The notes under the pieces were generated by a model. That model worked only from the letters and a program-made list of their open reading frames with translations, had not been told where the DNA came from and did no database searches. The position numbers and the translations under genes are program-made. A stretch of 64,000 nucleotides of DNA from Gaiellaceae bacterium. Its GTDB lineage: Bacteria > Actinomycetota > Thermoleophilia > Gaiellales > Gaiellaceae. Numbering within the stretch: the first letter of the stretch is position 1; each line of letters starts with the position of its first letter. The stretch is taken from the NCBI GenBank assembly GCA_036257855.1, contig DATAET010000124.1, positions 4,087-68,086 on the forward strand, read 5' to 3'. Shown in pieces: positions 45,840-50,142 of this stretch.

Positions 45840-47271
45840 GCGGGCTCGGATCTTCGCAGAGGAGAATCGCAAGTGGCTGACGCTCGCAGCCGTGTCGTTC
45901 GGGCTCTTCATGATCATGCTCGACAACACCGTCGTGAACGTCGCGCTGCCCTCGATCCAGCGCGATCTCGGCGCCGATCTCTCGGAGCTCGAGTGGATCG
46001 TGACCGGTTATGCGCTGACGTTCGCGTCGCTCATGCTCGTCGGCGGCAAGGTCGCCGACGCGTACGGGCGACGCCTGATCTTCGTGGTCGGGATCGTCGT
46101 CTTCACCATCGCGTCGCTCATGTGCGGGCTCGCGAGCTCGTCCGAGATGCTCATCGGCTCGCGCGTCCTCCAGGGCGCGGGAGCGGCGCTCATGAACCCC
46201 GCGACCCTCTCGATCATCGCCGCCACCTTCCCGCCGCGCGAGCGTGGAACCGCCATCGGAATCTGGGCGGGGACCTCCGCTCTGGCGCTCGCCATCGGCC
46301 CGCTCGTCGGCGGGCTGATCACCGAGCACCTCGACTGGAGCTGGATCTTCTTCGTGAACGTCCCGATCGGGGTCCTCGGCATCGCGGCCTCGTTCGCGTT
46401 CATCGACGAGTCGCGCGACGAGACGCACGCGAGCCTCGACCTCCCGGGTCTCGTGACCTCCGCGGTCGGCCTGTTCGCGCTCACGTACGGCCTCATCGAG
46501 GCGAACACGTACGGGTGGACGTCGGCGCGCATCGTCGGTTCGTTCGCGCTCGCCGTGATCGCCCTCGGCGCCTTCGTCGTCATCGAGCGCCGGCGTCGCG
46601 AACCCATGCTCCCGCTCGACCTCTTCCGCAGCGGCACGTACACGGGCGCGAACCTCGTGGTGCTCCTCGTCGCGCTCGCGATGTTCGGCGTCTTCTTCTT
46701 CGTCTCGCTCTACATGCAGAACATCCTCGGCTACTCGGCCGTGCAGGCCGGCGCCGCGTTCCTGCCGATGACCATCCTCATCATCCTGGTCGCGCCGATC
46801 GCAGGCAGGGCGAGCGACCGGATCGGCTCGCGCGGGCTCATGACCGCGGGAATGTCCCTGCTCGCCCTCCAGCTCGTCCTCTTCTCGCAGCTGGGGATCG
46901 ACGCGTCGTTCTGGAATCTTCTGCCGGCGCTCCTCATCGGCGGCGTCGGCATGTCGCTCACGATGACCCCGAGCGCCGCGGCCGCGACGAGAGGCGTTCC
47001 GGTCGACAAGGCCGGCGTCGGGTCGGCGGTGCTGAACAGCGCACGCCAGGTCGGCGGCACGATGGGGGTCGCGCTGATGGGGGCTATCGTCGCCGCGGAA
47101 GCCGGCGGCGAGCGGACGCCGGAGGCGTTCATGCGCGGATTCGAACGCGCCCTCCTCGTGGCCGCCGCCATCGCGGCCCTCGGCGCCGTCGTCGCCTGGG
47201 TCCTCGTCCGCCCGCACGAGGAAGCGGGCCGCCGACCCCAACGCACGGCGGCCGAGCCCGTAGCGAAGTAA
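45838..47271 (+). CDS. MFS transporter, DHA2 (EmrB/QacA, 14-TMS) family
   Basis: The start is ATG 45838 (MRARIFAEENRKWLTLAAVSFGLFMIMLDNTVVNVALPSIQRDLG). This is the characteristic DHA2 N-terminus, and there are many TM segments. Confidence 0.85.
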   Translation: MRARIFAEENRKWLTLAAVSFGLFMIMLDNTVVNVALPSIQRDLGADLSELEWIVTGYALTFASLMLVGGKVADAYGRRLIFVVGIVVFTIASLMCGLASSSEMLIGSRVLQGAGAALMNPATLSIIAATFPPRERGTAIGIWAGTSALALAIGPLVGGLITEHLDWSWIFFVNVPIGVLGIAASFAFIDESRDETHASLDLPGLVTSAVGLFALTYGLIEANTYGWTSARIVGSFALAVIALGAFVVIERRRREPMLPLDLFRSGTYTGANLVVLLVALAMFGVFFFVSLYMQNILGYSAVQAGAAFLPMTILIILVAPIAGRASDRIGSRGLMTAGMSLLALQLVLFSQLGIDASFWNLLPALLIGGVGMSLTMTPSAAAATRGVPVDKAGVGSAVLNSARQVGGTMGVALMGAIVAAEAGGERTPEAFMRGFERALLVAAAIAALGAVVAWVLVRPHEEAGRRPQRTAAEPVAK

Positions 47272-47340
47272 CGCCGATCAGCCTCAGCGCCTGAGGGCCG
47301 AAGGCGGTTCACTCCGCCGTAGGCCAGCGGCGGCGTGTCT

Positions 47341-47428
47341 GTGCACGGCGTGAGGAAGGGGGGACATGGGGGAAACATCGTTTCCCCCATGACTGAAAAC
47401 GCCCCCGGCTGCGGCTCCGGGGGCGTTT
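47341..47428 (+). repeat. tandem-hairpin intergenic module, copy A
   Basis: The order is GTGCACGGCGT, a purine run, a perfect 12-bp hairpin CATGGGGGAAAC-ATC-GTTTCCCCCATG (47365..47391), an A-rich linker, and a perfect 12-bp hairpin AAACGCCCCCGG-N8-CCGGGGGCGTTT (47397..47428). Confidence 0.6.
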
Positions 47429-47570
47429 CCCGTTCGAGGCGACCCCTTTCCGGGGCGACGAGCCGGCGAATCGTGGCTCTGCGGCCCAGCCACGCTCGTC
47501 CTGCGCCCGCCAGCGGATCCGGCGGTGGTGCCCGCGCATCCGATCTGGCGTCCGATCGTCTGCGGTGTGG
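47393..47570 (-). ncRNA. candidate ~175-nt small RNA (unclassified)
   Basis: It is bounded by a minus-strand TTGACT-N17-TATAGT promoter and by a GC hairpin followed by GUUUUC on the minus strand. The only ORFs inside it are extremely basic and read through the terminator. It contains internal stems (CGTGGCT-N9-AGCCACG) and a GATCGGA direct repeat. Confidence 0.4.
47397..47428 (-). terminator. intrinsic terminator (bidirectional shape; U-tract on minus strand)
   Basis: The GC core GCCCCCGG/CCGGGGGC is flanked by AAA on one side and TTT(T) on the other. On the minus strand it reads ...CCGGGGGCGTTTTCAG. Confidence 0.55.
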
Positions 47571-47575
47571 GCCTG

Positions 47576-47604
47576 ACTATAGGAGCCGTGTCTGGAAAAG
47601 TCAA
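47576..47604 (-). promoter_or_regulatory. near-consensus sigma-70/SigA-type promoter
   Basis: The minus strand reads TTGACT (47604..47599), a 17-nt spacer, then TATAGT (47581..47576). A second ACTTGAC copy lies 13 nt upstream (47619..47613). Confidence 0.55.
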
Positions 47605-47700
47605 GTAGCCAGGTCAAGTGATTTGGGCTACCGTTACTTCACCCCGAAGCGGTAACCGCACATCCCCCCGGCGGGGGAGAGCACCAGGCAGCAAACCGGA

Positions 47701-49080
47701 TTGACTGAAATGGGCATGCACGAGACCGCGCTTACCCCTGCATCAGGGCCGACGGCAACTGGACCGACCGCGTCCGGCGCGGGTGCCCGTCTCGGTGAGC
47801 GCGTTCGCGCGCTTCGCGTTTCCGCCGGTCTCACGCAGACGCAGCTCGCGGGCGACCGGTTCTCGAAGGAGTACATCAGCCAGATCGAGCGCGGCAAGAC
47901 GCGACCGACCGACGCGACGATCGACTGGCTCGCCCAGCAGCTCGGCGTCGACCCCGCGTTCCTCGCCTCCGGCGTCTCGACGGAGACTCGCACGAAGCTC
48001 GAGGCGGAGCTCGAGCGCGCGGAGGCGCTGTCCGCAGCCCATCGCTACGAGGAGGCCGTCGAGGCGTTCCGCGCGGTGCGGCCGGCGGTGCAGGAGGTTG
48101 GTATCGCGACCGTCGAGGCTCGTGCCCTCGCCGGCGAGGCGTGGGCTCTCCAGGAGCTCGGTCAGGTGCGAGAGGCGCTCGACCTGTTCGTCGTGGTACG
48201 CGAGAGCGCGGAGCGTCCCGAGTTTTCCGACCTCGATCGTGCGGACGTCCTCATGCGCATCGGCGTTTGCCGCTACAAGCTCTCGAGCATCTCGACGGCG
48301 ACGGCGCTCTTCGACTCGGCGCTCGAGCTCGCGGAGCGCCCAGGTCTTCCGGCGAGTGCGCTCCGCTCGGACATCCTGCAGTGGCGCTCACGCTGTCACC
48401 GTGTCATGCGCGATTACGTCGCGGCCCGCGACGACGCCGAGCGGGCGCTCGAGCTCGCACAGGACGTCGGCGATCGCGGCGCCATCGCACGCGCGTACAC
48501 GCAGGCGTCGCTCATCGCGCAGAGGCAGGGCCACTACGTTCTGTCCCGCAGCTACGCACAGCGGGCGAAGGAGCTGTGTCAGCAGTTGAACGACGAGCGG
48601 AGCGTCGGACGACTCCTGCTCATGCTGGGCGGCCTCACGCTCCTCCTGGGAGACGAGGAGCATGCGGTCGAGCACCTGAAGGCGTCCTATTCGAGGGCGC
48701 TCGATTCCGATTCCCCCGCGGACGCCGCGCAGGCGCTCGAGGGGATCGCCCGGGTTCATCTGAACCGTGGCGAATACGACCAGGCGGACGATCTGGCGCG
48801 GAAGGCGCTCGATCTGCTGCAGGGTCGGGAGGACTACCTCCACGAGGTCTGTCCGTCGCAGCTCGTACTGGGACGAGCGTTGCTCGAGCGCGGACGACTG
48901 GAAGAGGCGGAAGTGTGTTTCCGGGCAGCTGACGCTGCTGCTGAGCAGATGGCGTCGATCAGCCACCGGACGGAGGCGTGGGTCGCTCTCGGGGATCTCG
49001 CGGCGCGTCGAGGTGACGACCGCGGGGCCGCACGTCTCTATCGGAACGCCGCAGAGGCGCTCCAGGAAATCCGCTTCTAG
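47701..49080 (+). CDS. XRE-family HTH transcriptional regulator with C-terminal TPR-like repeat domain
   Basis: The Cro/C1 HTH reads LGERVRALRVSAGLTQTQLAGDRFSKEYISQIERGKTRPTDATIDWLAQQLGV. It is followed by about 9 helical-hairpin repeats (e.g. AHRYEEAVEAFRAV, GEYDQADDLARKALDLL, GRLEEAEVCFRAA). The start is uncertain: TTG 47701, ATG 47710 or ATG 47716. Confidence 0.8.
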   Translation: MTEMGMHETALTPASGPTATGPTASGAGARLGERVRALRVSAGLTQTQLAGDRFSKEYISQIERGKTRPTDATIDWLAQQLGVDPAFLASGVSTETRTKLEAELERAEALSAAHRYEEAVEAFRAVRPAVQEVGIATVEARALAGEAWALQELGQVREALDLFVVVRESAERPEFSDLDRADVLMRIGVCRYKLSSISTATALFDSALELAERPGLPASALRSDILQWRSRCHRVMRDYVAARDDAERALELAQDVGDRGAIARAYTQASLIAQRQGHYVLSRSYAQRAKELCQQLNDERSVGRLLLMLGGLTLLLGDEEHAVEHLKASYSRALDSDSPADAAQALEGIARVHLNRGEYDQADDLARKALDLLQGREDYLHEVCPSQLVLGRALLERGRLEEAEVCFRAADAAAEQMASISHRTEAWVALGDLAARRGDDRGAARLYRNAAEALQEIRF

Positions 49081-49095
49081 AGAGAGGAGGTCGCT

Positions 49096-49197
49096 ATGAA
49101 GCCGAGGCTGCTTCTCCTGCTCGTCAACCTCGCGTTGCTGGCCGCGTGGCTCGGGCAATGCGGTGGTGGACGCCACTCCTGGCCCGACGGGCTCTAG
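49096..49197 (+). CDS. 33-codon ORF encoding a signal-peptide-bearing small peptide (candidate)
   Basis: GGAGG (49086..49090) lies 5 nt upstream of ATG 49096. The peptide is MKPRLLLLLVNLALLAAWLGQCGGGRHSWPDGL*, ending at TAG 49195-49197. It is below the track's 60-aa cutoff and starts 16 nt after the regulator stop. Confidence 0.4.
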   Translation: MKPRLLLLLVNLALLAAWLGQCGGGRHSWPDGL

Positions 49198-49224
49198 GAA
49201 TCCCCGGGCTACACTCGGGCGCGT

Positions 49225-50142
49225 ATGCGCCCCGCTGCGGCACTGACCGTGCTGTCGTGCCTGCTCCTCGTCGGCTGCGGCGGGTCTGGCGGGAACGAGG
49301 CGACCACTCCCCCCGGAGGGGGTGAGACGCTGGAGCAACTCTGGCGTGCGCCCGGTGACGACGTCGCCGTGGTCCCCGGCACCGAGAGCTACGAGCCTGG
49401 GAGCGTGCGCGTGTCCTTCCTCGTCGTCGATGCCGACGGTCGGCCCGTCACGCTTCCGACGGCTCGCCTATGGGTCTCCGACGCGCTCGATCGAGCCCCC
49501 TTCCTCGAGACGGAGGCGAAGGTCGAGCGCATCGGCGTGCCCGGAGGCGCAGAGGCCGACGCGACGCATTTCTACGTCGCGAAGTTCCGCCTCCCCCGAC
49601 CCGGAAAGTACTGGCTCCTCGCCGAGCCCGAGGGAGGTTCGACCAAGGTGCAGGCCCTTGGCAACGTCGTGGTCGTGAAGCACGACCCGCCGCCGGACGT
49701 CGGCGACCCGGCACCTCCATCCGCCACGCCGACGCTCGCGTCCACGCACGGTGATCTGTCTGCGCTCACGACCCGCACGCCGCCGGACAAGACGCTGCTC
49801 CGTTACTCGGTCGCCGGCTCGCTCCGGGCGCAGGTGCCGTTCGTCGTGACTTTCGCGACCCCGAAGTTCTGCACGAGTCGGACTTGCGGGCCTATGGTCG
49901 ACGTCCTCGAGGAGGTCTCGAAGCGGTTCGAAGGCGAACGGGTCCGCTTCATCCACGTGGAGGTGTACGAGGGGAACGACCCGGCGAACGGCCTCAACCG
50001 CTGGATGCAGGAGTGGCGGCTGCCGACCGAGCCGTGGACCTTCCTCGTGGACGCGAGAGGCGTAATCGCCACTCGGCTCGAGGGCAGCGTCTCGGTCGAG
50101 GAACTCGAGACCGCGGTCAGAGACATGCTCGGCGCAGGCTGA
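49225..50142 (+). CDS. lipoprotein with C-terminal thioredoxin-like (TlpA/redoxin-type) domain
   Basis: The lipobox is LLLVGCGG. The C-terminal part is VPFVVTFATPKFCTSRTCGPMVDVLEEV...WTFLVDARGVI (thioredoxin fold, Cx4C). The N-terminal ~170 aa are beta-rich. A TACACT box lies 9 nt upstream of the ATG. Confidence 0.7.
   Translation: MRPAAALTVLSCLLLVGCGGSGGNEATTPPGGGETLEQLWRAPGDDVAVVPGTESYEPGSVRVSFLVVDADGRPVTLPTARLWVSDALDRAPFLETEAKVERIGVPGGAEADATHFYVAKFRLPRPGKYWLLAEPEGGSTKVQALGNVVVVKHDPPPDVGDPAPPSATPTLASTHGDLSALTTRTPPDKTLLRYSVAGSLRAQVPFVVTFATPKFCTSRTCGPMVDVLEEVSKRFEGERVRFIHVEVYEGNDPANGLNRWMQEWRLPTEPWTFLVDARGVIATRLEGSVSVEELETAVRDMLGAG

Follow-up and report, generated by a model that had tools for sequence, protein, structure and literature searches.

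The RRNPP peptide-sensing systems are regarded as typical of Firmicutes and of the mobile elements of these bacteria, whereas communication among actinobacteria is viewed as based on small molecules, for example gamma-butyrolactones (PMC10075063). A five-part signature from the same source served as our yardstick: a propeptide of 10-100 amino acids, its secretion, a receptor of 250-500 amino acids, the presence of tetratricopeptide repeats (TPRs) in that receptor, and genes that are direct neighbours (PMC10075063). Here, we analyse a stretch of 64,000 nucleotides (nt), hereafter the window, from a Gaiellaceae bacterium (GCA_036257855.1, contig DATAET010000124.1, positions 4,087-68,086; ~70% GC), and within it a regulator with an XRE-type helix-turn-helix (HTH) and TPRs that is followed directly by a small open reading frame (ORF) of 33 codons. 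A reading of the window made from its letters alone (the sequence-only reading) had proposed that this pair has the layout of an RRNPP receptor and its propeptide.

The Gaiellales are among the most abundant and least cultivated actinobacterial orders of soil. A scan with one genome per species returned 80 orthologous loci with regulator identities of 53-90%, which we divide into clade A (60-90%) and a distant clade B (53-58%); the window and all 80 loci are assigned to Gaiellaceae, Gaiellales or Thermoleophilia (Actinomycetota). Sequence comparison delimits a conserved module that comprises a structured small RNA (sRNA), a GTCAAGT-N6-GTCAAGT repeat, the regulator and the peptide gene, and that appears constant throughout the Gaiellales, order-wide and vertically inherited. 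The cultured type strain Gaiella occulta F2-233 carries all four elements (L082:4281-6105, QQZY01000001.1), with a 461-residue HTH-TPR protein followed by Gocc_0181 (34 residues, MRHARLLLLLANLALAAAWLGKFYPKSHTWSDGH) and a 312-residue protein.

By analogy with the described systems, we propose that the module works as an RRNPP-like circuit of peptide and receptor whose output is the sRNA, a proposal to which we give an even chance. The likeness would be one of layout, in a new phylum and encoded in the core genome; membership of RRNPP proper is not claimed. Four of the five parts of the signature are present, namely a propeptide of suitable length (33 residues in the window, 30-49 in 79 loci), a receptor of suitable length (454 residues), TPRs in this receptor and direct neighbourhood of the two genes; export, the fifth, rests on hand analysis. 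Of what the sequence-only reading had put forward, the adjacency and the conserved tail have stood up, and these four parts as well as a predicted fold that resembles peptide-binding TPR proteins speak for it; lipidation of the peptide has not stood up, and no sequence homology was found between the TPR domain and a known RRNPP family. The taxonomic range of RRNPP, that is, Bacillota and mobile elements, does not take in these loci, all of which are from Actinomycetota; this mismatch describes the case and carries no mechanism, and it is no argument against RRNPP-like working.

A conserved small gene behind the regulator

Dozens of ORFs of similar length occur in the window, and at 70% GC length alone is uninformative; conservation was chosen as the test because a 33-codon ORF is unremarkable at this base composition. 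The GGAGG Shine-Dalgarno box, the ATG and the 33-codon ORF all lie where the sequence-only reading had placed them (Table 1), 15 nt separating the ATG from the regulator stop (TAG, 49078-49080). The check suggested there, a search for a syntenic, Shine-Dalgarno-preceded ORF with a conserved C-terminal tail, finds one in 79 of the 80 loci. This ORF has 30-49 codons and starts 8-21 nt after the regulator stop in 78 loci and 59 nt after it in L079, with GGAGG or GGAGA 5-11 nt ahead of the start codon in all 79.

Substitutions in the small ORF follow a coding pattern. In 64 distinct clade A sequences, the entropy summed over columns is 25.4 bits at the first codon position, 16.0 at the second and 37.3 at the third, and the codons of five residues invariant in clade A (Ala13, Ala16, Ala17, Gly20 and Gly34) differ solely at the third position. 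The pooled Nei-Gojobori ratio of nonsynonymous to synonymous substitution (dN/dS), which is approximate, with dS near saturation, comes to 0.16 in the N-terminal and hydrophobic part and 0.21 in the tail, as against 1.30 in the linker. Among public proteins, a profile search matched 453 clusters, with a top E value of ~1e-13 and every cluster annotated as 'hypothetical protein'; the window peptide itself is already in the public record with an identical sequence, and no named family matches it in Pfam, NCBIfam or PADLOC. The retention with a Shine-Dalgarno box, the coding substitution pattern and the public homologues together lead us to conclude that the small ORF is, by its sequence record, a protein-coding gene under purifying selection.

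Two further details of the small ORF deserve mention. In L002 (6353-6502), a frameshift follows codon 22 and the SWPDG tail goes on in another frame; the source is a long-read metagenome-assembled genome (MAG), and a sequencing indel is likely. In the window, the small ORF shares the reading frame of the regulator, with the TAG and five codons between them (49078..49098), and stop-codon read-through from the regulator was considered and rejected, as in most other loci the gap is not divisible by three.

Anatomy of the peptide family

Clade A peptides follow the pattern M-K-P-R, then LLLLLVNLALLAAWLG, then 4-9 variable residues and finally [ST]-W-[PS]-[DE]-G-[HNSLT], to which one to three residues are sometimes added. 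Clade B peptides have a longer basic N-terminus (MATKLSILLRR) and a different hydrophobic segment, after which the sequence runs ...AA-[KR]-F-G-H...G-[LM]-W-D-G-P-[IL]. Just four positions are near-invariant in both clades: the Ala that ends the hydrophobic core, the Gly three residues on, the tail Trp and the tail Gly. The tail is the one element shared by both clades: most loci have [ST]W[PS][DE]G, the distant clade has WDGP, and there are intermediate forms (ISWFDGL, KTFSDGD, GFWEGPG and GFFDGPG). The pattern [ST]W[PS][DE]G-x(1-4) terminates 116 of the best 117 public homologues among the 453 clusters. Tail variants track the regulator phylogeny, so that any signal of peptide-receptor co-variation would be confounded.

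As judged by hand, the n-region has a net charge of +1 to +4 in all members, the hydrophobic core measures 15 residues in 53 of 79 loci, which is below the usual length of a membrane anchor, and the peptide ends in a neutral or acidic tail; in both clades, the core is closed by a small-x-small motif (LAA/WLG in clade A and VAA/KFG in clade B, the stroke marking a possible cleavage site). This geometry is compatible with that of a Sec signal peptide in an N-in/C-out orientation. The linker ahead of the tail, with its dN/dS of ~1.3, could act as the carrier of specificity. The 'lipobox-like LGQC' noticed in the window peptide is not shared by the family: this Cys occurs in only ~9 of the 80 loci and, among 117 public homologues, in 15, and most members are without any. 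Because Cys is so rarely conserved, lipidation is not a feature of the family.

The regulator

The sequence-only reading had drawn the regulator ORF from 47701 to 49080. The ORF and its TAG are present, but TTG 47701 is probably no start: across the orthologous loci, the only conserved start codon is ATG 47716 (GGCATGCACGAG), neither TTG 47701 nor the first ATG, at 47710, being conserved, and for this reason the protein is most likely 454 residues long. Orthologues measure 420-477 residues. The proposed architecture holds, as Pfam assigns residues 30-88 to HTH_31/HTH_3 and the remainder to TPR_12, TPR_2 and TPR_MalT (E values of 2e-21 for TPR_12, 1e-18 for TPR_2 and 8e-13 for HTH_31). The family searches of the regulator returned generic HTH and TPR models and no named family, matches to NsdA, AfsR and MalT lying far below the curated cut-offs. 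The block FSKEYISQIERGKTRPT, which contains the recognition helix, is almost invariant throughout the order, and a conserved operator is therefore predicted.

An AlphaFold2 model built on an alignment of 55 sequences, with a predicted local distance difference test score (pLDDT) of 91 and a predicted TM score (pTM) of 0.77, consists of a disordered N-terminus of ~23 residues, a five-helix HTH domain (22-86) and 18 more helices that form ~9 TPRs. The first ~20 residues, disordered in the model, are also poorly conserved; the TPR domain, of ~370 residues, contains many invariant polar residues. When the model is compared with the PDB by Foldseek, LGN/Pins, which are peptide-binding TPR proteins, and designed consensus TPRs make up most of the top matches. 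At rank 31 follows the PlcR-PapR7-DNA complex (3u3w) (E 6.5e-8, TM score of 0.78 normalised on PlcR, root-mean-square deviation of 3.5 Å, 271 columns), aligned over the HTH as well as the TPRs and the sole match in the top 50 with an HTH+TPR architecture, and the Rap protein of phage phi3T with its pheromone (8rsv) is at rank 48. The predicted fold of the regulator resembles that of peptide-binding TPR proteins, PlcR and Rap among them. In sequence and profile searches of the PDB, the HTH alone matches ComR, PlcR and other XRE-type regulators and repressors. The known RRNPP subfamilies are themselves barely related in sequence.

The upstream region: a structured sRNA and its repeats

The promoter divergent from the regulator (47576..47604) is predicted to drive a conserved structured sRNA, most likely the output of the module. 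With 10 of 12 matches, where 0.1 would be expected by chance, it is the only promoter-like site within 47250-49300, and genomes with proteins only 70-90% identical still share 87-96% identity in the intergenic DNA ahead of the regulator. An RNAalifold consensus on a MAFFT alignment was poor, and the structure was instead obtained by mapping the single-sequence minimum-free-energy fold onto the alignment, followed by alignment to a covariance model. This model (R1, 22 sequences) finds one match per locus, on the minus strand and immediately upstream of the regulator, in every locus with sufficient upstream DNA, including G. occulta and clade B. In 33 diverse members, changes are compensatory at 41 of 59 pairs, 83% of cells are paired versus 39-46% when the partners are slid, and no shuffle attains the observed scores, these statistics being drawn from an alignment fitted to the covariance model, which favours the structure. 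The abundant G-U pairs are consistent with the minus strand only, and the weak plus-strand covariance matches arise from the palindrome of the terminator alone.

Three loops of the sRNA are invariant (ACGCCAG, GGCCGCAGAG and GCCGCAGC). None of the 4227 covariance models of Rfam 15 matches the window at the gathering threshold, the best sub-threshold E values being ~2-8, and the element thus appears to be a previously undescribed structured RNA with repeated GCCGCAG loops. A 6C-like Rfam match at a permissive threshold was discarded; it is weak and spans the terminator only. For the 7-mer complementary to the GCCGCAG loops, we estimate ~35 chance occurrences in the window, too many for targets of the sRNA to be predicted from these loops. 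The hairpin at 47400-47425 (GCCCCCGG-loop-CCGGGGGC) stands between the sRNA, on the minus strand, and a gene for a major facilitator superfamily (MFS) transporter on the plus strand that ends at 47271; it is probably a bidirectional terminator that also ends this convergent gene.

The heptad GTCAAGT is concentrated ahead of the regulator. Two hundred copies are found in 24.9 kb of regulator-upstream sequence versus 10 in 772 kb elsewhere in the loci, an enrichment of roughly 600-fold, and the 64-kb window has the heptad at the two tandem sites and nowhere else. The repeats are conserved order-wide and make a candidate operator of the HTH. Between the CCCCC/GGGGG hairpin and the regulator, just ahead of its start, a conserved TT(G/C)ACT...GGCATG is seen; no convincing plus-strand -10 box that would mark a promoter of the regulator itself was found upstream.

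Table 1. Features of the module and its downstream neighbour (positions in the window)
Feature	Position	Strand	Remarks
Structured sRNA, ~180 nt	47394..47572	-	5' end placed from the promoter; 3' end at hairpin 47400-47425 plus U-tract
sRNA promoter, sigma-70-type, TTGACT-N17-TATAGT	47576..47604	-	Conserved in the alignment of loci
Tandem heptads GTCAAGT-N6-GTCAAGT	47600-47606 and 47613-47619		Candidate HTH operator; proximal copy overlaps the sRNA -35
Third heptad, inverted	47635..47642		Degenerate in the window (TACTTCAC); TACTTGAC in about half of loci
Hairpin CCCCC-N3-6-GGGGG	47664..47677	+	Conserved, between repeats and regulator start; possibly part of the regulator 5' leader
Regulator, 454 residues	47716..49080	+	XRE-type HTH (about residues 22-86) and 18 helices forming ~9 TPRs; predicted cytoplasmic receptor and transcription factor
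Shine-Dalgarno box GGAGG of the small ORF	49086..49090	+	5 nt before ATG 49096
Small ORF, propeptide candidate	49096..49197	+	33 codons, product MKPRLLLLLVNLALLAAWLGQCGGGRHSWPDGL; conserved in 79/80 loci
Parts of the window peptide			n-region MKPR; 15-residue hydrophobic core with NLALLAAW; possible signal-peptidase site LAA/WLG; hypervariable linker; tail SWPDGL
C-terminal fragments carrying the tail			WLGQCGGGRHSWPDGL and RHSWPDGL (window); KFYPKSHTWSDGH and HTWSDGH (G. occulta); KFGH...GLWDGPI (clade B)
-10 box TACACT of the lipoprotein gene	49210..49215	+	9 nt before ATG 49225; neighbour, outside the module
Lipoprotein, 305 residues	49225..50142	+	Lipobox LLLVGC; FCTSRTCGP (Cx4C); variable neighbour, outside the conserved module

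The downstream lipoprotein and the neighbourhood

The sequence-only reading had described the next gene as a lipoprotein with a Cx4C domain and its own TACACT box, and both the lipobox and the Cys motif, as well as the box, are confirmed (Table 1). Throughout clade A, GGCTA(C/G)ACT stands 9-10 nt before the lipoprotein ATG, whatever the intergenic distance (27-160 nt); because the box keeps this place at any distance, an independent and probably leaderless lipoprotein transcript is indicated. The gene is missing from L034, L035, L050, L063 and L067-L080, where other genes succeed the peptide. As had been proposed, the small ORF goes with the regulator and not with the lipoprotein, which has a conserved TA(C/G)ACT box of its own and is absent from many peptide-bearing loci; since the downstream gene changes while the pair persists, the regulator is the constant partner of the small ORF.

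A C-x4-C-G-P motif is present in 60 orthologues of the lipoprotein, its match to Thioredoxin_2 has an E value of 6e-4, below the Pfam cut-off, and its C-terminal domain is probably thioredoxin-like. A single-sequence AlphaFold2 model (pLDDT 44.5) was unusable. The protein, identical to HEX2427780.1 from a Gaiellaceae MAG, may serve as a Sco/TlpA-like factor in the maturation of cytochrome oxidase, an idea suggested by the presence of CtaA (heme A synthase) three genes downstream. The syntenic order is acetyl-CoA synthetase, MFS transporter, regulator, peptide, lipoprotein, short-chain dehydrogenase/reductase (SDR), AIR-synthase-like protein, CtaA and PAC2, which by its gene content is syntenic housekeeping DNA with no mobile element.

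A proposed mechanism and its alternatives

In the circuit that we propose, the regulator and the small ORF would be co-transcribed, as suggested by the 15-nt gap and by the separate promoter of the lipoprotein, and the strong Shine-Dalgarno box would ensure translation of a product of 30-49 residues. The signal-like N-terminus would then direct N-in/C-out insertion or export, with cleavage probably after the small-x-small motif (LAA/WLG in clade A and VAA/KFG in clade B). Cleavage would liberate a peptide of 13-19 residues, or a shorter C-terminal fragment, that bears the tail [ST]W[PS][DE]G or WDGP, and the hypervariable stretch before the tail might confer lineage specificity. By analogy with known receptors, the peptide would be re-imported and bound in the concave TPR groove of the cytoplasmic regulator. 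The position and conservation of the GTCAAGT-N6-GTCAAGT repeats over the -35 of the sRNA suggest that binding would change their occupancy by the regulator, with the sRNA as primary output and the regulator-peptide operon probably auto-regulated.

A more specific version of this circuit, to which we assign less than an even chance and which we offer tentatively, would make it a chromosomally fixed RRNPP-type circuit, the first outside Bacillota, with a secreted W-x-D-G pheromone, a fast-evolving N-terminal extension for lineage specificity, an HTH-TPR receptor and direct sRNA output.

Several observations weigh against the proposed circuit. Locus L059 (L059:6365-6450) is the sole one of the 80 without the small ORF, with ~100 nt gone between the regulator stop and the lipoprotein gene, and yet it keeps an intact regulator, 93% identical to that of its sister L055; this absence is either a recent loss or an artefact of MAG assembly. 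In the comparison of the modelled fold, Foldseek places generic TPR proteins ahead of PlcR and Rap, and sequence and profile searches of the PDB returned generic TPR matches and no homology to any known RRNPP TPR domain. The hydrophobic core is, by alignment, conserved residue by residue in clade A, including the polar Asn of NLALLAAW; a plain signal peptide would not usually show such conservation, which suggests a role for the segment itself. Finally, the tail hardly varies from genus to genus and the module is a core gene present in single copy, unlike classical pheromone systems, which diversify and often sit on mobile elements.

The conservation of the core and the lack of any pherotype-like diversification in the tail of a core gene would also be explained if the product stayed in the membrane as a small single-pass protein that is not cleaved, for example a modulator or a subunit of a membrane complex, or a reporter of membrane integrity or insertion, co-expressed with the regulator without being its diffusible ligand. 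Its link to the regulator would then be indirect or made through the conserved hydrophobic helix, and bacterial membrane proteins of 30-50 residues are indeed often regulators. Against this stand the length of the core, which at just 15 residues in most members is short for a stable anchor, the small-x-small motif that ends it in both clades, and the fact that what is conserved across the two clades is not the helix but the extracytoplasmic tail; moreover, its one constant partner protein is the cytoplasmic TPR regulator, and the folds nearest to that of this regulator bind short peptides. We consider this explanation, the foremost of the alternatives, somewhat unlikely. The export-like geometry is also in keeping with a peptide that acts outside the cell, for instance through a membrane sensor, in adhesion or as an antimicrobial, or together with the thioredoxin-like lipoprotein, with the regulator controlling its expression without sensing it. 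An exported lipoprotein is the next gene in most clade A loci, but it has its own promoter and is missing from many loci that bear the pair; no sensor kinase or maturation enzyme is conserved nearby, and a TPR domain of ~370 residues with many invariant polar residues needs a ligand. This second alternative is, in our view, improbable.

The remaining explanations, namely a role in translation only (upstream ORF or coupling), a chance ORF, a toxin-antitoxin-like pair of an XRE antitoxin and a small hydrophobic toxin, or a precursor of a ribosomally synthesised and post-translationally modified peptide (RiPP), are together very improbable, and the sequence evidence appears largely to exclude them. 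The small ORF does lie 27 nt upstream of the lipoprotein gene in the window, as an upstream ORF might, but its amino-acid sequence is under purifying selection, which also speaks against a chance ORF, and the downstream gene is variable and has its own leaderless promoter. Short hydrophobic ORFs beside XRE regulators are known from toxin-antitoxin loci, whereas here the partner is a 454-residue TPR regulator in a syntenic housekeeping neighbourhood, on which PADLOC reports generic HTH models alone and no other defence or toxin-antitoxin model. For a RiPP, there is no adjacent maturase or radical-SAM gene.

Implications

In the literature, we found no peptide or RRNPP systems in Actinobacteria or Gaiella, and in the paper on the G. 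occulta genome, peptide transport and this locus both go unmentioned. If the proposed circuit is correct, signalling by peptides through TPR receptors would extend to a second phylum, in the deep-branching Actinomycetota, such a system could be a core housekeeping circuit and not just an accessory or mobile one, and peptide signalling would be linked to a new sRNA family. Even if the quorum-sensing interpretation is wrong, two uncharacterised conserved elements have been defined, a protein family of ~33 residues and a structured sRNA of ~180 nt. The hypothesis is experimentally accessible because the cultured type strain, G. occulta F2-233, bears the complete module (Gocc_0181); the candidate ligand is a short peptide open to synthesis, and the repeat proposed as operator is simple.

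Comparison with known systems

The WhiJ/BldB-type pairs of Streptomyces, in which an XRE (HTH_31) regulator is accompanied by a small adjacent DUF397 ORF, bear some likeness to the module. WhiJ-type proteins are without TPRs, and DUF397 proteins are soluble and ~70 residues long; the Pfam and NCBIfam searches matched neither DUF397 nor a WhiJ-specific family.

Among the streptococcal systems, Rgg-SHP and ComR-ComS have propeptides of ~20-35 residues with a basic N-terminus, a hydrophobic stretch and an aromatic-rich active part at the C-terminus (the WW of XIP), all of which recall the family described here, and the HTH of ComR is weakly similar to that of the regulator. These peptides, however, lack a Sec-type signal and make use of PptAB and Eep, and their receptors, of ~300 residues, have degenerate TPRs. 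PlcR-PapR (3u3w) shares with the module the HTH+TPR receptor and the peptide gene downstream of it, the ligand of PlcR being a C-terminal peptide; PlcR has 285 residues, five degenerate TPRs and the palindromic PlcR box, whereas we find ~9 canonical TPRs and the direct repeat GTCAAGT-N6-GTCAAGT.

The arbitrium system of Bacillus phages (AimR-AimP-aimX) is found on mobile elements, has aimX downstream and not divergent, and shows no homology to the module; like the module, it combines a TPR receptor with an adjacent short propeptide and a non-coding RNA output, a role that its position suggests for the sRNA here. The counterpart from the Bacillus cereus group, NprR-NprX, differs in phylum (Bacillota versus Actinomycetota), in the undetected homology of the TPR sequences and in the propeptide, since NprX has 43 residues as against 30-35 here, with almost no pro-region in the latter; the module, in addition, belongs to the chromosomal core and has a tail that hardly varies, and in place of a protease gene its candidate output is a divergent sRNA. 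In its architecture, NprR-NprX is alike: the receptor, of ~420-450 residues, carries an XRE-type HTH at its N-terminus and ~9 TPRs, the gene of the propeptide is directly downstream, co-oriented and probably co-transcribed, and the active part lies near the C-terminus of a short exported propeptide.

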